Notes under the pieces: generated by a model
Told to the model about the DNA's origin: nothing
Seen by the model: only the letters and a program-made list of their open reading frames with translations
Databases searched by the model: none
Part shown: positions 2,607-23,240 of the stretch, piece by piece
How the letters are laid out: each line of letters opens with the position of its first letter
Position numbering within the stretch: position 1 is the stretch's first letter
Assembly (NCBI GenBank): GCA_028710985.1
Contig: JAQTTB010000001.1
Span: 359,397 to 423,396 of the forward strand
Reading direction: 5' to 3'
Origin: Patescibacteria group bacterium
GTDB lineage: Bacteria; Patescibacteriota; Patescibacteriia; JAHJFT01
DNA length: 64,000 nt
Translations under genes and position numbers: made by a program

Positions 2607-5600
2607 ATGATATTTAAAAGAATGGCGCCGACCGAGCCGGGCAGAAAATATTTTACCCGCTTGCGCGAGGCGATTCCGCTCCCGAACCTAATTCAGGTCC
2701 AGCTGGACTCATATCGCTGGTTTCTTGAAAACGGTATTCGCGAGCTTTTTAACGAGATTTCGCCGATTAAGGATTTTATCGGCCGTGATCTTGAGTTATA
2801 TTTTGAAGATTATTATTTCGACGAGCCCAAGTTTGACGAGCCGACATCGCGCGAAAAAAATATTACTTACGAAGCGCCGCTCCGTGTGCGCGCCAAGCTC
2901 ATGAACCGCCGCACCGAAGAAGAGCGCGAGCAGGATATTTATCTCGGCGACTTGCCGGTAATGACTGACCGCGGCACTTTTATCATCAATGGTATCGAGC
3001 GCGCGGTTGTCACCCAGCTCGTGCGTTCGGCCGGCGCTTTTTTTACTTCCGAATTCAACCGCGGACGCAAGTATTACGGAGCGAAACTGATTCCCAACCG
3101 CGGCGCCTGGCTTGAATTTGAAACCGACGCGAGCAATGTCATCTGGGTGAAGATTGATCGTAAAAGAAAAGTCGTGGTTACGGCGCTCATGCGTTCGTTC
3201 GGATATTCCACGGATGAGGAAATTATCAAAGAGTTTAAGGACGTGGATATTCACCCGACCAATCGTTACATTGAATCAACCATCGCGAAAGATGTTTCGC
3301 ATGATCAGGACGGCGGCTTGATCGAGGTGTACAAAAGAATTCGTCCTGGCGATCTTGCAACTCCAGATAATGCCAAAAGCTTGATACACGCCATGTTTTT
3401 TAATTACGATCGTTATGATTTGGGTAAAGTCGGTCGTTATAAATTCAATCTGCGTTTCGGACTGGATACGGCAAAAAAACACGTTGAAGATGAAAAGAAT
3501 CGCATTCTCCGACCCGAAGACATTGTCATGATTGTCCGTGAAATTATCCGGCTGAATATTAGCCAGGGAGACGCCGATGATGTCGATCATCTCGGCAACC
3601 GCCGCGTTCGCGCGGTCGGAGAACTGGTGCAGGCGCGTTTCCGCGTCGGCCTCGCGCGCATGGAGCGCATTGTCAAAGACCGCATGAGCACCATTGATGT
3701 TTCGGCCCTGACTTCCGGAAAATTGGTCAACGCCCGCCCGGTTATCGGCGCGGTGCGCGAATTTTTTATGTCATCCCAGCTTTCGCAGTTCATGGATCAG
3801 ACCAATCCTCTGGCCGAACTTGAGCACAAGCGCCGGCTCTCGGCCATGGGCCCGGGCGGCTTATCGCGCGAACGCGCCGGATTTGAAGTCCGTGACGTCC
3901 ACCCGACTCACTACGGCCGCATCTGCCCGATTGCCACTCCCGAAGGACCGAACATCGGCTTGGTGGGCCATCTTTCCTGCTACGCGCTTGTTAATGAATA
4001 CGGTTTTATTGAATCTCCTTACCGTCGCGTGGTGCATGATGTGCCGAACGACGGCAAGTCCGCGGTCGGGGAATATGCCCGCCATGATTTGAAAGACGCT
4101 GAAGGCAAAATTGTTGTTTCCGCCGAAGAAAAGATTACCAAAGAAATCGCTGCGAAACTTATAGGCAACGGAACGGAAACCATTCCGCTCAAGCCGCGCG
4201 TCACCAATGATATTGAATATTTGAACGCGTTTCACGAAGAAAAATCAATCTGCGCTTCGGCCACCACTGCAATCGACGAAAAAGGATTCTTTCTGGAAAC
4301 GCAGGTCGGCGTCCGCAAACGCGGCGAGCCGAGCGTTGAAGACGTTCACTCCATTGATTACATGGACGTTGCTTCAAAGCAGATTGTGAGTATCGCCACT
4401 GCCTTGATCCCGTTCCTGGAACATGATGACACTGTCCGCGCCTTGATGGGCACGAACATGCAGCGCCAGGCAGTGCCGTGTGTTAAAGCCGATGCTCCGA
4501 TTGTTGGCACCGGCGTGGAGGAGCGCGCGGCGCGCGATTCCGGGCATATGATATCGGCCGAAGAAGACGGTGTGGTGAAATATATTGACGCCGCCCGCAT
4601 TATTATTGAGAAGAAAGACGGCGACGCGCATGAATATGTGATGAAAAAATTTCTGCGCTCCAATGCTTCCACCTGCATCAACCAGACTCCGGTTGTTTCA
4701 CCCGGCCAAAAAATTAAGATTGGAGATGTTCTCGCCGACGGTTCGGGCATCGATCAGGGCGAACTTGCCCTGGGCCAGAATGTTTTCGTGGCTTTCATGG
4801 CCTGGGAAGGGTACAACTACGAGGACGCGGTTATTATTTCCGAGCGCCTTGTGCAGGACGACCGTTATACATCAGTGAATATTGAACACTGCGTGGTTGA
4901 TGTGCGCGATACCAAACTCGGGCCGGAAGTGGTTACTTCGGATATTCCGAATATCGGCGAAGAAAAACTCCGCAATTTAGATGAGAACGGCATTGTACGC
5001 GTCGGCGCCGAAGTCACATCCGGCGATATTTTGGTCGGCAAAATTACTCCCAAGGGCGAAACCGAACTTTCGGCCGAAGAAAAACTCCTGCGTGCCATTT
5101 TCGGCGAGAAGGCCCGCGACGTGCGCGACAGTTCGCTTTATCTTGAGCACGGTGAACATGGCAAGGTAGTGGATATTAAAATTTTTTCACGCGAGGACGG
5201 CGACAAACTGCCGCCCGGCGTTATTAAATCAATTCAGGTTTCCGTGGCCGATCTCCGCAAGGTGCAGGTTGGCGACAAGCTCGCCGGCCGTCACGGCAAC
5301 AAAGGCGTTATTTCCAAGGTGGTTCCGATTGAAGACATGCCGTTTCTCGAAGACGGCACGCCGGTTGACATGATTCTTTCGCCGCTCGGCGTTGTCTCCC
5401 GCATGAACCTCGGCCAGATTCTGGAAACTCATCTTGGCCTTGCGGCCAACGCCCTTGGCTATCAGGTTGCGACTCCGGTTTTGGATGGCGTCTCGGAAGA
5501 AACTATTCACAGCGAACTCAAGCGCGCCGGTTTTCCGTCCGACGGAAAAATCAAGGTATTTGACGGCCGCACCGGCGACGCATTTGAAAACAAACCGACA

Positions 5601-13075: not shown

Positions 13076-13147
13076 AGCGGGCGACCGGAATCGAACCGGC
13101 ATCTTCAGCTTGGAAGGCTAACATAATAGCCATTATACGACGCCCGC
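13076..13147 (-). tRNA. tRNA-Gly (anticodon TCC)
   Basis: Manual fold: GCGGGCG acceptor, anticodon loop CTTCCAA, T-arm GCCGG-TTCGATT-CCGGT, discriminator U, no encoded CCA. Leader and trailer form an extended inverted repeat (aaaaaattatca / tgataatttttt and ttcgaggatccc / gggatcctcgaa). Confidence 0.85.
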
Positions 13148-13222
13148 TGATAATTTTTTAAGGACTCTTACGGGCGGGATCCTCGAAAATTCAACCTCGC
13201 TTCGCTTCGGGAATTTTCGGGA

Positions 13223-13248
13223 GAAGGCTAACGTAATAGCCATTATAC
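13223..13248 (-). repeat. partial copy of tRNA-Gly positions about 10-35 (D-arm to anticodon loop), joined directly to the 20-nt palindrome
   Basis: gaaggctaacgtaatagccattatac matches 13113-13138 with 1 mismatch. The copy ends within the anticodon loop. Confidence 0.7.
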
Positions 13249-13267
13249 CTGCCTGCCGGCAGGCAGG
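13248..13267. repeat. 20-nt perfect palindrome CCTGCCTGCCGGCAGGCAGG
   Basis: Exact self-complementary 20-mer. Confidence 0.9.
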
Positions 13268-13279
13268 CGACACTCGCGA

Positions 13280-14269
13280 TTAAAATGCTGATCCAATAAT
13301 GCGATTAAGGATTTGCTTATATGATAATCCCTCATTGATTAACAGTCGTGGGAACATCGAAATGTCTGTAAAACCTGGAAGCGTGTTAATTTCATTTATA
13401 TAAACACGATTGTTATTTATAAAAAAATCGATTCGCGCAAAGCCGCGGCAGTCGCAAAGCCGATAAGCGCGTGAGGCGTAATTTAGAATTATGGAGGCTT
13501 GAGAGGTAGTCAATTTTGCTGGAATATTAATTTGCGTTTTATTGAGTTTATATTTGTCATCAAAATCGTAAAATTCATTTACCGGCACTATTTCGCCGGG
13601 TTTAGAAATCAGCGGGTCATGATTGCCTATAACCGCTACTTCAATTTCTTGCGGATTTTTAAGCCCCTGCTCAATCAATATTTTCTGATCATGCCGTCGG
13701 GCTTTGTTTATCGCCGCTGGCAGTTGAGAAAAACTATTAACTCTCGAAATTCCGATTGAAGATCCGGAGTTTGAAGGTTTTACAAAAATTGGCAAGTTAA
13801 AGGTTTTTTTAATTTTTTTTAATTTAATATCAATTTCTTTTTTTGAAAGAGTAGAATAATCAATTGATGCGAATCTGACTTGAGGGATACGATTATATTT
13901 AATAAAATTTTTAAAAAAAGATTTATCCATGCAAAGAGCCGAAGACAGAACGCGGCAGCCGCAATATTTGATGCCGCAATTTTCGAGCATGGCCTGCAAT
14001 ATCCCATCCTCGCCAAAACGGCCATGCGTTATGGGAAATGCAATATCAATAATTTTTTTAAAATCTTTTAATTCAATTTTTTTCAAACCAAGACGTGAAA
14101 GGTTATTGAAATTTTTTACAATATTGAATTCTCCATTTTTCCGCCAATACATTAACACCAGTGAGTATTTTTTAAAATCAAAGTTCTCGGCAATATTCTT
14201 CGCGGAAATTATGGATATATCCGATTCATTCCCCGGACCGCCAAGGATTAAACCTATTCTTTTTTTCAT
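13280..14269 (-). CDS. ddl: D-alanine--D-alanine ligase
   Basis: ATP-grasp Ddl layout: N-terminal GGxxxE..., a central ATP-grasp region and a C-terminal ...EINTLPGFT motif. GC is about 30%, far below its surroundings. Confidence 0.85.
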   Translation of the reverse strand: MKKRIGLILGGPGNESDISIISAKNIAENFDFKKYSLVLMYWRKNGEFNIVKNFNNLSRLGLKKIELKDFKKIIDIAFPITHGRFGEDGILQAMLENCGIKYCGCRVLSSALCMDKSFFKNFIKYNRIPQVRFASIDYSTLSKKEIDIKLKKIKKTFNLPIFVKPSNSGSSIGISRVNSFSQLPAAINKARRHDQKILIEQGLKNPQEIEVAVIGNHDPLISKPGEIVPVNEFYDFDDKYKLNKTQINIPAKLTTSQASIILNYASRAYRLCDCRGFARIDFFINNNRVYINEINTLPGFTDISMFPRLLINEGLSYKQILNRIIGSAF

Positions 14270-14277
14270 ATAAACTT

Positions 14278-14340
14278 TGGTCGGGGATGAGAGACTCGAA
14301 CTCTCGACCTTCCCGACCCAACGTCGGGACGCGCTACGAA
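14278..14340 (-). pseudogene. tRNA-Pro-derived fragment (D-stem 3' strand through CCA) with the anticodon arm replaced by a GTCCCGAC-GTTGG-GTCGGGA hairpin; no 5' acceptor strand
   Basis: TAGCGCG...AGGTCGAGAGTTCGAGTCTCTCATCCCCGACCA is identical to the intact tRNA-Pro. Upstream sequence cannot pair with the acceptor 3' strand. Confidence 0.7.
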
Positions 14341-14354
14341 TTATTTATTACAGA

Positions 14355-14395
14355 TGGTCGGGGCGGTGAGATTTGAACTCACGATCTCATGCTCC
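14355..14395 (-). pseudogene. 3' half of a split tRNA-Pro: GGA-GCATG-AGATC-GTGAG-TTCAAAT-CTCAC-CGCCCCG-A-CCA
   Basis: Pairs perfectly with the 5' half at 14510-14544 (see findings). Confidence 0.75.
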
Positions 14396-14509
14396 CCCGC
14401 CTGCCGTCGCCTTGGTCGGGGATGAGAGACTCGAACTCTCGACCTCCTGCTCCCAAAGCAGGCGCGCTACCAACTGCGCTAATCCCCGGCTCAGGCCATG
14501 GCGGGCAGG
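14396..14509 (-). mobile_element. 114-nt insertion splitting a tRNA-Pro in its anticodon loop; it carries a complete tRNA-Pro(TGG) and ends in CCCGCCTGCC...GGCGGGCAGG
   Basis: Boundaries defined by where the two tRNA halves stop pairing. Mobility is inferred. Confidence 0.45.
14413..14488 (-). tRNA. tRNA-Pro (anticodon TGG), CCA encoded
   Basis: CGGGGAT-TA-GCGC-AGTTGGTA-GCGC-G-CCTGC-TTTGGGA-GCAGG-AGGTC-GAGAG-TTCGAGT-CTCTC-ATCCCCG-A-CCA. C1:G72 and A73 are Pro identity elements. Confidence 0.9.
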
Positions 14510-14544
14510 CAAAGCATGCGCCTTAGCCGCTAGGCCACGCCCCG
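14510..14544 (-). pseudogene. 5' half of the split tRNA-Pro: CGGGGCG-TG-GCCT-AGCGGCTA-AGGC-G-CATGC-TTTG
   Basis: Acceptor, D-arm and anticodon-stem 5' strand. Complements 14355-14395. Confidence 0.75.
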
Positions 14545-14626
14545 GATAAATTTATTCTAATAATAGCAGAAATCACTAAATAAATCAAGATGCCCGGCTG
14601 GATTTTTTTGCTAAGATAAGCCATTT

Positions 14627-14662
14627 TAAAACCGTTCCGACAATTTGCCGGAACGGTTTTTT
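14627..14662. terminator. bidirectional rho-independent terminator downstream of tRNA-Phe
   Basis: aaaaccgttccg-acaatttgc-cggaacggtttttt: a 12-bp stem flanked by an A-run and a T-run. Confidence 0.65.
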
Positions 14663-14674
14663 GAAAATCCGTAA

Positions 14675-14746
14675 ATGCCTGGGGACAGAATTGAACTGTC
14701 GACACGTGGATTTTCAGTCCACTGCTCTACCACTGAGCTACCCAGG
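14675..14746 (-). tRNA. tRNA-Phe (anticodon GAA)
   Basis: GCCTGGG-TA-GCTC-AGTGGTA-GAGC-A-GTGGA-CTGAAAA-TCCAC-GTGTC-GACAG-TTCAATT-CTGTC-CCCAGGC-A. Confidence 0.9.
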
Positions 14747-14767
14747 CCCAGGGCTTTATAAAATTGA

Positions 14768-14844
14768 TGGTGGGCGCACGTGGACTCGAACCACGGACCT
14801 CGTCATTATCAGTGACGCGCTCTAACCAGCTGAGCTATGCGCCC
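14768..14844 (-). tRNA. tRNA-Ile (anticodon GAT), CCA encoded
   Basis: GGGCGCA-TA-GCTC-AGCTGGTTA-GAGC-G-CGTCA-CTGATAA-TGACG-AGGTC-CGTGG-TTCGAGT-CCACG-TGCGCCC-A-CCA. This is the classic tRNA that follows 16S in rrn operons. Confidence 0.9.
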
Positions 14845-15092
14845 AATATGTCATGGCTGATTCTTGCTTGTAAAAAGCGCCTCCCAAATCCGGTCTTAAA
14901 ATATTTTTCTCGCTTAAGGGCAAGTTCTTTGCTCAGGCAGGCTTCATAATATACCAGTTTCAATGGACGGCGTATTCGCGTTGAGTCCACTTTGCCCAAC
15001 GCATGCTCTTGGCAGCGTTTTTTTAAATCATCCGTAAAACCGATATAAAATTTCTTATCTTTTAAACTTAATAAAACGTAGGTAAAAAACAT
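14835..15092 (-). CDS. GIY-YIG nuclease family protein (85 aa)
   Basis: YVLLSLKDKKFYIGFTDDLKKRCQEH matches the GIY-YIG motif. Its 3' end overlaps the tRNA-Ile 5' end by about 10 nt. Confidence 0.7.
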   Translation of the reverse strand: MFFTYVLLSLKDKKFYIGFTDDLKKRCQEHALGKVDSTRIRRPLKLVYYEACLSKELALKREKYFKTGFGRRFLQARISHDILGA

Positions 15093-15107
15093 TATTCGCG
15101 AGTCCTC

Positions 15108-15488
15108 CTATGCACCCTTGGTTTCCAGGGTGACATTGATATTGGATGGATTGAATTTGTCCTGTATGTATTCTTTGATTTTATTCGGAGTATCCGAGCT
15201 GCCGCAGGTCAGAATGTCGATTGAGCAGTAGCCGTATTCTGGCCAGGTATAAATCGCGGCGTGGGATTCTTCCAGTATCGCGACTGCCGAGACCCCCTGG
15301 TGTTTAGTCAGCTCGCCGTTGAAAATTTTGTGATGGTAGTCAACAAAATTTACCAAATGTAAGCCGGCTTTGCTTATGGCAGATGTCAGAGTTTCTTTGA
15401 TTAGATTTCGGTCATTGAGCAATTGTTCGTTGACCCCATAGAACTCGGCGTAAAGATGATAGAGCCGAGGCGTATAGAGTTGTTCCAT
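15108..15488 (-). CDS. speH: S-adenosylmethionine decarboxylase proenzyme (class 1b, pyruvoyl)
   Basis: The self-cleavage motif ILEESHAAIYTWPEYGY is present. Size is about 126 aa. Confidence 0.85.
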   Translation of the reverse strand: MEQLYTPRLYHLYAEFYGVNEQLLNDRNLIKETLTSAISKAGLHLVNFVDYHHKIFNGELTKHQGVSAVAILEESHAAIYTWPEYGYCSIDILTCGSSDTPNKIKEYIQDKFNPSNINVTLETKGA

Positions 15489-15677
15489 TTCTTTATCCTC
15501 AATATTGGCGCGGCGGAAAGGCCCGTCAATATAAAAAAGACTATAAATTATGTAGCTACAGTATATTAATTTTCTGTAAGGATCGCAAGAGACTTTGTCC
15601 CTGTGGATACATAATTTAAAGCCTTCTCAACTTAGAAAGTGATAGGATTTCCTTCTTTGGGATATTTACTCCCTAGA

Positions 15678-17175
<1,498 letters not shown>

Positions 17176-18737: not shown

Positions 18738-18974
18738 TCAGGCTTCGGGCCTTGGCCGGCTCGCCAGGGCGATGCCGATGGAAATCGGCCAGAGCAGGGT
18801 GAACAGCATGGCCGCGCCCAGGCTCTTGAAGAACAGGTTGTCCTTCTTCGGCCGGTTCGGGAGATCGCGCAGCCGGATGCCGCCGACCTTGAGCTCCAGG
18901 CCGATGATGACCATGGCGCCGATCGTGTACCAGACCGAAAAGATCAGGATGGCAACGTAGATTACGAGCTCCAT
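18738..18974 (-). CDS. small membrane protein (78 aa, 2 predicted TM helices)
   Basis: AAGGAGG RBS 5 nt upstream and two hydrophobic segments. Confidence 0.45.
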   Translation of the reverse strand: MELVIYVAILIFSVWYTIGAMVIIGLELKVGGIRLRDLPNRPKKDNLFFKSLGAAMLFTLLWPISIGIALASRPRPEA

Positions 18975-19020
18975 GAAATCCTCCTTGTTATTATGTCCGC
19001 ATCAGCCGCCGATTTGCATC

Positions 19021-19063
19021 AGCGTCTCATGTGGAGGCATGACGTAAGAATGTCATGCCAGTT
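19021..19063 (-). repeat. island-specific intergenic element, copy 2
   Basis: See 18136-18178. Confidence 0.55.
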
Positions 19064-19087
19064 AGGTGGGTAGGAAAGAGCGGATTG

Positions 19088-21055
19088 TCAGAACGACAGG
19101 ATGCCCGTGGAGGTTCTCGTGACGCCGGTGAATGTCCAGCCGGAGTCATAGAGGTTGATCCACGCGCGATGCCGCGGTGTGCCGCGTGTGCCAATGGCGA
19201 AGACCAGGAACTCGTCATTCCAGTCCGGAATCCGGATGAAGTATGACGAGCTGTCGTTCGCATAGCTCGTGCACACTGGGAACGCGGGGTCGGTGTGGTA
19301 GGTGTCCGGATCCCAGACCTGGTCGTCCCAGTCTTCGGACCCGTAGGTCACGCAGAGCGCGCCGATTTCCTCTGTCCCTTCCAGGGCAAAGGGGTTGTCG
19401 CTGAACGCGGCCGCGTGATGAGCCTCGAGCGTGCCGCGGATCTCAATCTCGCGGTAGCCCGACATGGTCCGGCCGGTGATGCTGTACGTGCCCGAGGTCG
19501 TTGAGCTTGAACAGCCCTCGTCCACGGTACCGTCGCAGTCATCATCTGCCGAGTTGCAGGACTCGCCCGGCGGAACGCAGGTCCCCCAGCTGCACGAAGT
19601 ATCGCAGGTCTGGGTGCCGGTCGTTGAGCACGAACTCGTGCAGGTGCGGGTTGAGTAGCGGACGCAGGTGAACGTCTCGTCCGTGAGCCCGTCGGAATCG
19701 TTGTCGCTGCCGTCGCAGATTTCGGTTCCGGATATTGGAGGCGTTGCACCTCCGCAGGAGCCGAGTCCCCACGCCGTAAGCGCGGTGTTTGACGCGGTGC
19801 GGCAGAGATCGCCGGCGAGCACGAGCTGTGTCACATCCATCTTGAGGATTGCTCCCCAGGAGGTGATGACCGCGGGTTTCACCTGCGTGAACCCGCAGAG
19901 CGTGAAGCCCATGGGCTCGCCGTCGCCCGGGTAGTCGAGCGAGAAGCACGCGCTGTCCAGGCAGCCCGTTGTGGCGTCATGGTAGGCCGTGACCCGGTCG
20001 ATGTACTCGCCCGGATTCAAGGGCCGCACCAGCCCGTAGCCGTCGCGCGAGTCCAAGTAGAACGTGCCGGAGAAGTTGACGCATGACCCGATTGCGACCC
20101 CGGAGAGCCGGCTTATCTGGTCCGGCGTGGCCGGCGGCTCCCAGAACGTATCGCAGTCCGGGTCGTCGTCGTCCGTCACTCCGTCGTGATCGTTATCCGC
20201 ACCGTCGGTGCAGACATCCATCTCCGGGAGGGCCGGGCAGCGCAGTGCGAGCCGGGTCGTGCCGCCATCCGAGGCGGCCGCACGGTAGCAGGGCTCCGTG
20301 CTCACGAAGTCGAACTTGGAAAGATCGAGCTCGTACGTCGCCGAACCGAGCTGGAAGAACCAGCCCGTGTCGCCGCCCCGGGTGTACCAGAGGCTGCCCG
20401 GTGTGGCCGTTTCCGACCACGTCTTGCAGATCCGACCGGTCGTGGTTGACCAGCTGTTCCAGCTGCCGAAGGCGCAGAGCGCGCTCGGCCGGCCGGGGAG
20501 TGTGGCGAACGTTCCGGAGAGCATGTCTCCGTAGATTCGCGACTCCACCGCGTCGCCGGGGTTTGAAACCCAGTCGCGGAACTCGGCATAGATCGTGCCG
20601 ATTGGGGCAGGCGGGCCGGGGATTTCCCCGCCATGCGGGGAATCATCGGTCGCGGTGTCCACGGCCGTGTCCGGAGTTGTGTCCGGAACCGTGTCCGTGG
20701 TCGTATCGGTTGCCGTGTCAGTCGCCGTGTCGCAGGTCGTATCCGGCTCGGTGGCCGCATCGTCGGTCCCTGTGTCGGTCGTCGTGTCCGCGGCCGTGTC
20801 AGAATCAGTTGCCGCGTCCGTACCGCCGATGCAGTCCTCCTCGTCCACGAACCCGTCGATGTCGTCGTCCCAGCCGTTGCCGCAGATCTCGGGGGCGGGT
20901 GCGTCGGAATCGGTTCCGGCATCGCAGATCTCGTCCACGAGTCCGTTGCCGTCGTTGTCCACGCCGTCGCAGATCTCCGGGGGCCAGCCCATTGGCTCGT
21001 TGGTGCAGCCAGTGAGCATCCAGATCGTCGCGATCGTCCAAAGCGTCTTCTTCAT
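19088..21055 (-). CDS. secreted lipoprotein (lipobox LTGC) with repeated CxDGxDNDxDGxxDE metal-binding-type motifs and Thr/Asp-rich low-complexity segments
   Basis: Signal peptide MKKTLWTIATIWMLTGC and multiple EICDGVDNDGNGLVDE-type repeats (MopE-like putative metal-binding motif). The family assignment comes from motif recognition only. Confidence 0.7.
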   Translation of the reverse strand: MKKTLWTIATIWMLTGCTNEPMGWPPEICDGVDNDGNGLVDEICDAGTDSDAPAPEICGNGWDDDIDGFVDEEDCIGGTDAATDSDTAADTTTDTGTDDAATEPDTTCDTATDTATDTTTDTVPDTTPDTAVDTATDDSPHGGEIPGPPAPIGTIYAEFRDWVSNPGDAVESRIYGDMLSGTFATLPGRPSALCAFGSWNSWSTTTGRICKTWSETATPGSLWYTRGGDTGWFFQLGSATYELDLSKFDFVSTEPCYRAAASDGGTTRLALRCPALPEMDVCTDGADNDHDGVTDDDDPDCDTFWEPPATPDQISRLSGVAIGSCVNFSGTFYLDSRDGYGLVRPLNPGEYIDRVTAYHDATTGCLDSACFSLDYPGDGEPMGFTLCGFTQVKPAVITSWGAILKMDVTQLVLAGDLCRTASNTALTAWGLGSCGGATPPISGTEICDGSDNDSDGLTDETFTCVRYSTRTCTSSCSTTGTQTCDTSCSWGTCVPPGESCNSADDDCDGTVDEGCSSSTTSGTYSITGRTMSGYREIEIRGTLEAHHAAAFSDNPFALEGTEEIGALCVTYGSEDWDDQVWDPDTYHTDPAFPVCTSYANDSSSYFIRIPDWNDEFLVFAIGTRGTPRHRAWINLYDSGWTFTGVTRTSTGILSF

Positions 21056-21091: not shown

Positions 21092-21195
21092 AATGTACTC
21101 TTCATGAACCCACCATCCCAATGATGGCGGACTCATGTGAGTGCGCGACTGATTCAGGGGATGAATCATTATGTCGCGCAAGTTGGTGTGAAAGA
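21092..21195 (-). promoter_or_regulatory. 104-nt conserved leader, copy B (upstream of the lipoprotein gene); contains a GCGCGAC...GTCGCGC hairpin and a short uORF whose stop overlaps the main ATG
   Basis: About 98% identical to 22342-22445. Each copy sits directly 5' of a minus-strand Cys-rich gene. Confidence 0.6.
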
Positions 21196-21200
21196 GCAAT

Positions 21201-22304
21201 CTATTTATTCTGTGCTGCCTTTTTCTTAGCACGGCGTTCACGCGCGTAGCAGGTGCCGCAGACAGGTCCTTGGTCATTCCGTATTTTCACCGGCCTTACC
21301 TTGTGGCAGCAAATGCATTCTTCCTCAGACCGCTTGTAGCAGTTTACGCAGACAGGTCCTTGGTCAGTCCGCTGATTAACCGGCCTTACCTTGTGGCAGC
21401 AAATGCATTCTTCCTCAGGCCGCTTGTAGCAGTTTACGCAGACAGGTCCTTGGTCAGTCCGCTGATTCACCGGCCTTACCTTGTGGCAGCAAATGCATTC
21501 TTCCTCAGGTGGTTGGTAGGCCTTATAATAGCAACTTGCGCATATGGGGCCGTCATCAGTACGTTTATGAACAGGCTGCTCTTTATGGCAACGAACGCAT
21601 TCTTCTTCAGGCGCTCGGTAGCATCTATCACAGACAGGGCCGTCATCTAAGCGCTTCCTAACTGTTCTTACCCGATGGCAGAGTATGCACTTTTCTTTAG
21701 GGCGTAGGTGAGTCTTTCTGTAGCAGGCATCACAGATTGGACCCTCGTCCGTGCGCTGAACCACGGGCCTTACCCTATGGCAACAAATGCATTCTTCTTC
21801 CGGGCATTTATAGCAACAGTCACAGATTGGACCCTCGTCCGTGCGCTGAACCACGGGCCTTACCCTATGGCAACAAATGCATTCTTCTTCCGGGCGTTGG
21901 TAGGTTTTATTGTAGCAGCTTGCGCAAATGGGGCCATCGCTCGTGCGCTGCAAAACCGGCCTTACACTGTGACAGCGAACGCATTCTTCAAGGGCCGTAT
22001 GGTAACACTTGCCGCAGACTAGGCCGCCGTCCATGCGTTGAAAATTAATTTCGCTCCTTTCGTTGCAGACGCAGCAAATATCAATTTTCCTGTGGGACTC
22101 CAGGCCGGCGCATTGCCGACAGACGAGCGCGCCGGTTTGATTGAAATATTTTAGCGCTCGCAGATTATTGCAGTCCGGACATTTGCTCCGGGGCTTTGGC
22201 TGGCCTTGGCCCTCGCGTCGTGTTGGCTCGTGCATGCGCACGCAGTCTTCGTCTCCACAAACCGGGCAAATATGCCCGTGCGTTTCAGTGTGATTCTCGC
22301 ACAC
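21201..22304 (-). CDS. tandem zinc-ribbon-like repeat protein (367 aa; about 10 repeats of C-x-C-C-H-x10-GP-x-C-x2-C-Y)
   Basis: The protein repeats EEECICCHKVRPVNQRTDQGPVCVNCYKRP. The underlying 99-bp DNA repeats at 21289-21486 are near-identical. Probable GTG start. Confidence 0.65.
   Translation of the reverse strand: MCENHTETHGHICPVCGDEDCVRMHEPTRREGQGQPKPRSKCPDCNNLRALKYFNQTGALVCRQCAGLESHRKIDICCVCNERSEINFQRMDGGLVCGKCYHTALEECVRCHSVRPVLQRTSDGPICASCYNKTYQRPEEECICCHRVRPVVQRTDEGPICDCCYKCPEEECICCHRVRPVVQRTDEGPICDACYRKTHLRPKEKCILCHRVRTVRKRLDDGPVCDRCYRAPEEECVRCHKEQPVHKRTDDGPICASCYYKAYQPPEEECICCHKVRPVNQRTDQGPVCVNCYKRPEEECICCHKVRPVNQRTDQGPVCVNCYKRSEEECICCHKVRPVKIRNDQGPVCGTCYARERRAKKKAAQNK
21289..21486 (-). 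repeat. two near-identical 99-bp tandem repeats (plus diverged copies up to about 22000) inside the Zn-ribbon repeat gene
   Basis: ccggccttaccttgtggcagcaaatgcattcttcctcag... repeated with 1-2 mismatches. Confidence 0.85.
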
Positions 22305-22341
22305 GGCATACCTACCTTTCTGTGGTTAGATTTTGTTGTCG

Positions 22342-22445
22342 AATGTACTCTTCATGAACCCACCATCCCAATGATGGCGGACTCGTGTGAGTGCGCGACT
22401 GATTCAGGGGATGAATCATTATGTCGCGCAAGTTGGTGTGAAAGA
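22342..22445 (-). promoter_or_regulatory. 104-nt conserved leader, copy A (upstream of the Zn-ribbon repeat gene)
   Basis: See 21092-21195. Confidence 0.6.
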
Positions 22446-22797: not shown

Positions 22798-23195
22798 GCT
22801 CTTCCTTTCCTAGAGGCAATGCCTCCCTCTTTGGCAAATGGCTTGTAAAGAACGACTCTGGGAGAGAGTATTTTTTATTGCCATCGGCCAAAGGGGGAGA
22901 CCCGCCTCAAACAAAAAGGCGAAGTCAGCTTGGGAAGAGTATTTCCAGTCTAACTTCGCCCATATAGCCAAATCCGGCTATATTTTGCGATTATTTATGA
23001 TATTTCTCTCTCCCCGATATTTGATTGTTAACGGGGTATAATATCATATTTTTGCGATTTTGTCAAGAGTGGCCGCCGGCCGAGCCGGCGGCAATTTTAA
23101 GTTGTAAATTTTAAATTTTAACTCAAATCCCAATTTTAAATGATAAATTACTTAATGTCGGGTCGCTTCGCCATTAAAGCATTCAAAATTTTTCA

Positions 23196-23240
23196 TTTAA
23201 AATTGAATTAAAATTTAAAACTTAAAATTTAAAATTAAAA
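23196..23240. repeat. AT-rich 41-bp unit tttaaaattgaattaaaatt|taaaacttaaaatttaaaatt: the 'empty site' version of 36106-36170
   Basis: The same unit at 36106-36170 carries the 20-nt palindrome exactly at the marked junction. Confidence 0.8.

Follow-up and report, generated by a model that had tools for sequence, protein, structure and literature searches.

A tandem array of C4 zinc modules in a Patescibacteria genome as a candidate nucleic-acid-binding protein

Tandem arrays of zinc modules that read DNA are a hallmark of eukaryotes, and to our knowledge bacteria use such arrays only rarely. Bacterial topoisomerase I carries tandem C4 ribbons (zf-C4_Topoisom, PF01396) that bind single-stranded DNA via aromatic and basic residues. 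LIM domains follow the pattern C-x2-C-x16-23-H-x2-C and then C-x2-C-x16-21-C-x2-C/H/D, with 2 residues between the fingers. The zinc-ribbon HNH endonucleases described in PMC3592412 carry one or two ribbons and not arrays. Here we describe a gene for a tandem array of C4 zinc modules (positions 21201-22304, minus strand) in the metagenome-assembled genome (MAG) of a Patescibacteria group bacterium. It lies within 64,000 nucleotides (nt) of contig JAQTTB010000001.1 (positions 359,397 to 423,396, assembly GCA_028710985.1); this whole stretch is called the window below, and coordinates refer to it unless another locus is named. The array gene is real, intact and under selection, and it encodes an array-only member of an uncharacterised C4 zinc-module family.

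The array gene and its repeat units

The open reading frame (ORF) encodes 367 amino acids (aa) from a GTG start, as read from the ORF list and its translation. An earlier note on this DNA had allowed for a frame error that breaks the ORF; none was found, and the unbroken frame was confirmed by orthologues. The GTG aligns with the start codons of the orthologues L006, L010, L011 and L012 and of the more distant collinear members P0030 and P0035. A Shine-Dalgarno-like GAAAGGTAGG (22311-22320, minus strand) can be read 6 nt 5' of the GTG, the 28 nt 5' of the start show 96% identity in L011, and a conserved AGGTATGCC precedes the start in L006, L010 and L011, where the start codon is ATG. Over the non-repetitive N-terminal 107 codons the ratio of nonsynonymous to synonymous substitution rates (dN/dS) was 0.11-0.12 for the window against L011 and L010, and the gene is therefore under purifying selection. 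An exact look-up returned no record of this exact protein in large protein and contig collections. The translation contains 52 Cys and 16 His. A signal peptide is absent, as had been stated before, because no 15-aa stretch is hydrophobic: the highest 15-aa Kyte-Doolittle mean is 0.59, and there is no hydrophobic N-terminus. The idea of a cytoplasmic protein is supported.

The array fills the ORF: a knuckle at the N-terminus is followed by two units of atypical form, by eight canonical ones and by a basic tail, all described here on the minus strand. Ten CxxC-x15/16-CxxC units were found, with first residues at aa 42, 77, 108, 142, 172, 206, 236, 270, 300 and 330. This agrees with the earlier count of about 10 tandem zinc-ribbon-like repeats, and the unit quoted at the time, EEECICCHKVRPVNQRTDQGPVCVNCYKRP, is present twice. 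The knuckle CPVCGDEDCVRMH (aa 13-25; 22230-22268), delimited by alignment of orthologues, is a putative C-C-C-H metal site. Its columns C13, P14, C16, C21, V22, R23 and H25 are invariant in an alignment with L006, P0030 and P0035, and the pattern C-P-x-C-x4-C-V-R-x-H was also found in L010, L011, L012, P0047 and P0160. Then follow the two atypical units of the form CxxC-x16-CxxC (aa 42-100; 22005-22181), which are read from the translation and are collinear in orthologues. The eight canonical units CxxC-x15-CxxC-Y (aa 104-353; 21246-21995), defined by translation, alignment and model, alternate in length between 34 and 30 aa and have the consensus P-E-E-E-C-[IV]-x-C-x-K-[VTI]-[RK]-P-V-x-[QK]-R-T-x-[DE]-G-P-[IV]-C-x-x-C-Y. 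The basic C-terminal tail ARERRAKKKAAQNK (21204-21245, from the translation) is matched by RERR/RQRR-type tails in L006, L010, L012, P0030, P0062, P0069 and P0116.

Conservation was computed over 38 canonical units of 8 proteins. Four Cys were invariant, P13, V14, R17, T18, G21, P22 and Y28 were nearly invariant, and unit positions 7, 15, 25, 26 and 29 varied most. The extra Cys and His of the 'CICCH' motif in the window protein become CIRCR, CIRCG or CINCN in orthologues. Because this third Cys and the His are replaced, the ligand set is C4 and not C-x-C-C-H as first proposed; orthologues read CIRC[R/H/G] here, and only the four Cys of CxxC...CxxC are invariant. About 11 zinc sites are predicted for the array protein. 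We infer that they are occupied by zinc from the invariant C4 sets of fixed spacing and from confident finger-like models that were built without metal.

In the AlphaFold2 models, units 3-10 had predicted local distance difference test (pLDDT) values of 74-93 per ten-residue block, mostly 85-93, and a three-unit fragment had a mean pLDDT of 86.6. The first ~100 residues were poorly modelled, with the atypical units below 50. In the modelled unit a short strand precedes a beta-hairpin, and a short helix begins at the second CxxC. A Foldseek search against the PDB placed tandem LIM domains on top with weak scores (expect value (E) 8e-4 to 2e-3, template modelling (TM) score 0.1-0.4), and the GATA3 double finger stood lower in the list. 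Matches to viral structures were also weak and included phage HNH endonucleases and giant-virus zinc-finger proteins. By shape only, the unit would belong among the treble-clef/zinc-ribbon fingers.

The window protein could not be assigned to any family in Pfam, NCBIfam, PADLOC or PHROGs, and no HNH, GIY-YIG or tyrosine-recombinase domain was found in it with these databases; sub-threshold noise included DNApolII_N (E 0.003) and phrog_36808 (E 1.4e-4). The hidden Markov model (HMM) searches against Pfam and NCBIfam thus bear out the earlier impression that it belongs to no named family. It had no match to DZR_2 or DZR even at E<=1 and stayed below the DZR_2 gathering cutoff (27 bits). A profile search of the PDB gave nothing significant, the best matches being the CRP2 LIM domain (E 0.06) and multihaem cytochromes (E 0.03-0.14).

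The array shows clear signs of recent unit duplication. Tandem Repeats Finder detected a period of 90 bp at 21246-21509 (2.9 copies, 93% match, score 458) and again at 21730-21895 (1.8 copies, 100% match). The youngest duplication (21330-21509, minus strand) comprises units 8 (21420-21509) and 9 (21330-21419), 90-bp copies that match at 89/90 positions and whose sole difference is synonymous. The near-identical DNA repeats reported before therefore exist, with a length of 90 bp (30 aa) instead of the 99 bp (33 aa) given for them; their placement at 21289-21387 and 21388-21486 was wrong, as just 28/99 positions match between those intervals. The view that older copies are progressively diverged was too simple, since there is a second young pair (21730-21895, minus strand), in which units 4 and 5 share an exact repeat of 76 nt at a 90-bp offset (21820-21895 and 21730-21805). 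Self-similarity of the whole ORF peaks at 192 nt, which equals the double unit of 34+30 aa. For the young units 9 and 10 the ratio of nonsynonymous to synonymous differences per site (pN/pS) was ~0.7, a value from small numbers; they differ at positions 1, 15, 16, 18, 25, 26 and 29, five of them among the most variable. Amino acid identity between units was 66-67% within the window and within L006 and 58% between these two genomes, and the higher identity within genomes therefore indicates lineage-specific expansion or homogenisation. The earlier suggestion of recent expansion or ongoing recombination was upheld by the two young pairs and by the syntenic relatives L012 and L006 with 5 and 12 units: the array has expanded recently or is still recombining. 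Unequal recombination, with the 90-bp units and the 192-bp double units as substrates, would quickly shift the unit number.

Relatives, fusion proteins and possible functions

Orthologues in other Patescibacteria kept the N-terminus and the tail and had 5 to 12 units. L006 (Patescibacteria MAG, JAHJFT010000092) was the one orthologue returned when genome contigs were scanned with a narrow alignment. This protein of 426 aa (51% identity, E 2e-135, BLASTP) has the knuckle, the two atypical units and the tail as in the window protein, but 12 units, and its gene has its own promoter (TTGACA-17-TATATT). Alignment and BLASTP showed that L006 and the other orthologues are collinear with the window protein in their atypical units, canonical CxxC-x15-CxxC-Y units and RERR-type tail. 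Three further orthologues were encoded on metagenome contigs: L010 with 10 units; L011, a truncated protein whose N-terminus is nearest to that of the window protein (74% identity over 107 aa); and L012 with 5 units, which is syntenic with L006 and has the same GT4 glycosyltransferase divergently encoded upstream.

Gene neighbourhoods varied among the orthologues, which fits a stand-alone, self-contained factor; those of P0018, P0028, P0116, P0047 and P0062 were short contigs and uninformative. At the P0035 locus (L007, 6016-10678), a ZntA-like P1B ATPase, the array, a ZnuC-like gene and a ZnuB/AztB-like gene follow each other on one strand, with gaps of 18 nt after the ATPase (TIGR01512, 386.7 bits, above cutoff) and 62 nt before the ZnuC-like gene. 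Upstream of this zinc cluster lie two DUF3299 and three Band_7 genes, and downstream of it a CorC/CNNM gene. At another locus (L016, 991-2637) a protein of 548 aa is encoded 1 nt downstream of the array-only P0069. It contains about five YRGV...W.A...LG.F...EAA.A.D.AA repeats that look AP2-like by eye; no tool called AP2, and for this protein no match to Pfam is recorded.

A phmmer search against 1.84 billion representatives returned 740 clusters at E<=1e-3; of these, 289 reached E<=1e-10 and 10 reached E<=1e-30. We scanned 154 of the best relatives with Pfam, 63 of them with at least 430 aa and 91 shorter. Among the 63 longer ones, GIY-YIG was found in 10 and Phage_integrase in 7, and matches to HNH, HNH_4 and HNH_5 were found among the 91 shorter ones. 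DZR_2 (PF18912) matched 37/154 relatives, with E down to 8.8e-21 summed over repeats. According to Pfam, P0019 and P0026 consist of the array (17 and 11 units, respectively), then an integrase and then GIY-YIG, and P0022 and P0024 of the array followed by GIY-YIG, with a weak integrase match in PHROGs for P0022 (E 0.005). These four proteins are 866-1071 aa long and encoded by low-GC (guanine plus cytosine) genes, with 11-17 zinc modules and a C-terminal GIY-YIG domain. No published description was found for this architecture of zinc modules and GIY-YIG, in two cases with a tyrosine recombinase in between. A search of the literature on tandem zinc ribbons, GIY-YIG and recombinase fusions, treble-clef arrays and DZR_2 did not turn up a description of the family either.

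Actinobacterial relatives (~34 proteins, 700-780 aa) have about 9 units and then a conserved region of ~390 aa, whose best PDB match was XerD, a weak one (E 0.022); one of these proteins is named 'phage integrase family protein' by NCBI. The ~390-aa region (e.g. in P0029 and P0081) shows a WLFPG motif and an invariant Trp near the C-terminus. This Trp lies approximately where the catalytic Tyr of a recombinase is expected; the region may be a degenerate recombinase domain carried on elements resembling integrative and conjugative elements (ICE). The shorter member P0008 is encoded in an ICE-like region beside an integrase, a helix-turn-helix protein, a TrwB-like ATPase and a relaxase. Array-only proteins numbered at least 24 among the best 150 matches. 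The window protein is the stand-alone form of a wider uncharacterised family in which the array is elsewhere fused to nucleases and recombinase-like proteins.

The function had first been sought in either a metal buffer or a nucleic-acid-binding array. The second idea is the better supported one, by the GIY-YIG, HNH and recombinase-like fusions, and the first has one orthologue in a zinc-transporter cluster. We see about an even chance that the protein is a zinc-dependent, cytoplasmic nucleic-acid-binding array, with DNA as the most likely ligand. Nucleic-acid binding, which like zinc occupancy is inferred here, is suggested because nucleases and recombinase-like proteins of other lineages carry the array as their non-catalytic part, because every unit keeps Arg, Thr, Tyr and several Lys/Arg beside the ligands, because the full-length orthologues are basic (isoelectric point 8.4-9.5) with a conserved basic tail, and because the neighbourhoods differ between orthologues, as for a self-contained factor. 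Each canonical unit would fold round one structural Zn(Cys)4 site into a treble-clef, GATA/LIM-like module. Contacts would be made by the conserved Arg17, Thr18 and Tyr28 and by several Lys/Arg on the hairpin, and the hypervariable positions 7, 15, 25, 26 and 29 would sit in the knuckles, the hairpin and the helix start. In other lineages the same array would serve as the N-terminal targeting part of HNH or GIY-YIG nucleases and of tyrosine-recombinase-like proteins. Within the window, the two-hairpin elements on either side of the array gene could serve as the target.

Several points weigh against nucleic-acid binding. The fusion partners are confined to distant relatives (30-40% identity), with none in the Patescibacteria orthologues, and the matches by fold score low (E >= 8e-4, TM 0.1-0.4). 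LIM domains, moreover, bind proteins and not DNA. P0035, with a ZntA-like P1B ATPase on one side and ZnuC/ZnuB-like genes on the other, has a context that points to zinc handling. That syntenic relatives have lost or gained seven units sits uneasily with a fixed, sequence-specific site, and the linkers between units of the window protein are acidic (PEEE). A more specific form of nucleic-acid binding, which we consider doubtful, is a modular, fast-reshuffled bacterial zinc-finger array with recognition per unit, the counterpart of C2H2 arrays and transcription activator-like effectors (TALE). Such an array would be both a stand-alone regulator and a targeting module of nucleases and recombinases, might act on the two-hairpin elements of its own cluster, and would have its specificity set by positions 7, 15, 25, 26 and 29.

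There is a minor though appreciable chance that the protein is a zinc buffer, store or chaperone that holds about 11 Zn, with a capacity set by unit number, and works together with zinc import and export. The zinc-transporter genes around P0035, all on the same strand, would fit such a role, as would the variation from 5 to 12 units among close relatives, the 52 Cys in 367 aa and the annotation of a window neighbour as MopE-related, i.e. with a putative metal-binding motif. A GATA-type zinc-finger fold is also found within bacterial metallothioneins (PMC10612145). The zinc-gene context was, however, seen in just one of about eight informative neighbourhoods, and neither Pfam nor NCBIfam gave a metallothionein match for the window protein. 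In general, isolated Zn(Cys)4 sites within folded fingers serve a structural role and hold their metal very tightly, so that such sites would suit buffering poorly. The conserved P-V, R-T, G-P and Y and the basic tail would be needless in a pure metal sink, and the fusion of the array to nucleases and recombinases in relatives also speaks against one.

An unlikely explanation is a protein-protein scaffold of LIM-like double fingers that recruits or bridges other proteins, such as those encoded by the adjacent membrane-protein and lipoprotein genes. Tandem LIM domains were the best structural matches, the strongest periodicity of 192 nt corresponds to a two-unit super-repeat as in LIM, and the array and MopE-related genes are linked in two genomes (window and L011). 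Pfam nevertheless gave no LIM match, and the spacing is unlike that of LIM, with x15 between the knuckles and linkers that span 7-11 aa where LIM has 2. The orthologues share no conserved gene partner, and the lipoprotein-like signal of the MopE-related protein (MKKTLWTIATIWMLTGC, by eye) would place that protein outside the cytoplasm.

We regard it as quite improbable that the gene is a decaying or tolerated remnant, left over when a mobile nuclease or recombinase gene lost its catalytic domain and kept its DNA-targeting portion, with no role in the cell. Fusions to nucleases or recombinases among the relatives would fit this, as would the 104-nt direct repeats that flank the array gene and a GC content of the ~4-kb cluster (53-65%) above the window mean of 51%. 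The N-terminal dN/dS of 0.11-0.12 argues otherwise. So do the intact ORFs of at least 6 orthologues that share N-terminus, array and tail with the window protein, and the presence of at least 24 array-only proteins among the best 150 matches. The flanking repeats, moreover, are an intercistronic element with copies between further genes of the cluster. Finally, a redox protein, either a multihaem c-type cytochrome with eight CxxCH motifs (CVRCH, CICCH, CILCH) or a series of Fe(Cys)4 centres as in rubredoxin, is very hard to credit in spite of near-noise PDB sequence matches to multihaem cytochromes (E 0.03-0.14), since there is neither a signal peptide nor a rubredoxin or cytochrome match in Pfam, and the second CxxC is never followed by His; the c-type cytochrome was rejected because of the missing signal peptide and because the His of CxxCH is not conserved in orthologues (CIRCR, CIRCG, CINCN).

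Gene cluster and two-hairpin elements

The array gene is located in a four-gene cluster on the minus strand, in the order 116-aa gene, array, MopE-related gene and 77-aa ORF. Deposited neighbours from the 744,538-bp contig of the Patescibacteria group bacterium MAG are MDD4995181, MDD4995183, MDD4995184 and MDD4995185. The cluster promoter is consensus-like (TTGACA-17-TATTAT; 23066-23038, minus strand). The upstream neighbour is a hypothetical protein of 116 aa (MDD4995183.1; 22447-22797, minus strand), by eye a small membrane protein, for which no family match was found in Pfam or NCBIfam. Downstream lies the gene of the 655-aa MopE-related protein (19088-21055, minus strand; 65% GC), which has a lipoprotein-like N-terminus, and the last cluster gene is the ORF of 77 aa (18741-18974, minus strand), which is membrane-protein-like. 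The MopE-related protein shows acidic double-disulfide repeats, and a homologue (L011, 2-2209) is linked to the array orthologue in a gene order that differs from that of the window. The cluster genes have 53-65% GC against 51% in the window, and GC is raised throughout 18.7-22.8 kb. No HNH, GIY-YIG or recombinase gene adjoins the array gene in the window; the surroundings of the cluster are housekeeping genes, i.e. trmD, a KH-domain protein, S16, SMC, ClpP, Ddl and 16S rRNA.

Two copies of a two-hairpin element flank the array gene, E1 (22340-22445, minus strand; fold z-score -3.5) in the gap to the 116-aa gene and E2 (21092-21197, minus strand) in the gap to the MopE-related gene. Within the cluster, every gene is followed by such an element. 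They share 104 nt with 1 mismatch (22342-22445 and 21092-21195). A third, diverged copy (c. 18990-19084, minus strand) follows the MopE-related gene, and related copies were found in L011 between cluster genes (2235-2335, 3438-3580 and 4170-4270) and in L010 upstream of the array gene (20-125). Because of these further copies in the window, L011 and L010, the bracketing by E1 and E2 is not a cassette duplication. All copies (7/7) folded into two hairpins. The sequences of the first stem vary yet stay complementary (GCGCGAC/GTCGCGC, GGCATGAC/GTCATGCC, GGCACGACC/GGTCGTGCC, GGCGCGAT/ATCGCGCC and GCGCGATC/GATCGCGC), and the left box of the element reads CTCTTTC..ACCCACC, while its right box resembles CCCCATCGAGAC. 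The element was absent from L006 and L012, within the 64-kb window it was found only in the array-gene cluster, and Rfam gave no match for it or for the window. A reading as integron attC sites was rejected, as most copies show no GTTRRRY / RYYYAAC core pair by eye. The element may be an intercistronic element for RNA processing or stability or a cluster-specific operator.

Between trmD and the cluster promoter, an AT-rich stretch (23100-23240) contains reiterated TTTTAA(A)/TTTAAAA motifs and is followed by a GC-rich hairpin GCCGCCGGCCGAGCCGGCGGC (23072-23092). Logan contigs with trmD, which neighbours the cluster, match the window at 100% identity and end inside the AT-rich stretch, at 23208-23210, short of the array gene. 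The window also contains a 16S rRNA gene (15677-17174, minus strand) and then tRNA genes (region 13076-17174); no 23S or 5S rRNA gene was detected in its 64 kb, which suggests an unlinked rRNA operon.

Comparison with described zinc proteins

The array family is well conserved and comprises about 740 sequence clusters; we found no published description of it, and no curated model covers the window member. Where the array is joined to nucleases or recombinase-like proteins, it would represent a natural equivalent of engineered zinc-finger nucleases, and in Patescibacteria it occurs alone, with a unit number that changes between close relatives. If the binding specificity were modular, the array would provide a new programmable DNA- or RNA-binding scaffold and a handle on gene regulation in uncultured bacteria with small genomes. 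As a zinc store, it would instead stand for a new kind of metallothionein-like protein in bacteria.

Among known zinc modules, DZR_2 (PF18912) and DZR (PF12773) resemble the array in their tandem paired CxxC...CxxC zinc modules. The window family differs from them by its P-V-x-x-R-T-x-x-G-P-x-C-x-x-C-Y signature, by up to 17 units and by its specific N-terminus and tail. Like LIM and GATA fingers, each unit is predicted to have two CxxC knuckles, a hairpin between them and a helix from the second knuckle, and the array shows a 64-aa two-unit super-repeat. The structural matches to these fingers score low (E 8e-4 to 5e-2, TM 0.1-0.4), and at the sequence level no homology exists. The spacing between knuckles is x15 (x16 in units 1-2) in the window protein, compared with x16-23 in LIM and x17-18 in GATA; its linkers have 7-11 aa compared with 2 in LIM, all its ligands are Cys, and it is bacterial. 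With no Pfam match to LIM (PF00412) at E<=1 and with these differences in spacing and linkers, the protein falls outside LIM, and it likewise departs from GATA in HMM match, spacing and linker.

The zinc-ribbon repeats of topoisomerase I would be the nearest functional analogue of the proposed mechanism. Topoisomerase units are, however, ~40-45 aa long, number only 3-5 and are attached to an enzyme, and zf-C4_Topoisom had no Pfam match to the window protein and was absent from the fold matches. SmtA and BmtA, too, are zinc proteins of the cytoplasm rich in Cys; they have a finger fold of the GATA type (PMC10612145) and a link to zinc homeostasis genes, as seen for P0035. SmtA is a single small domain with a Zn4 cluster, bridging Cys and His, whereas the window protein is a long, regular and conserved repeat with predicted isolated C4 sites. 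Eukaryotic C2H2 arrays (PRDM9, KRAB-ZFPs) and TALE come close, as they too are built of tandem modules with near-identical DNA repeats in which recombination changes the unit number and a few positions fast. Their fold and ligands are unrelated, and those systems bind DNA, whereas DNA binding and a recognition code would be proposed features of the window family. Taken together, the window protein is a variant among the zinc-ribbon/treble-clef repeat proteins and not a new category.

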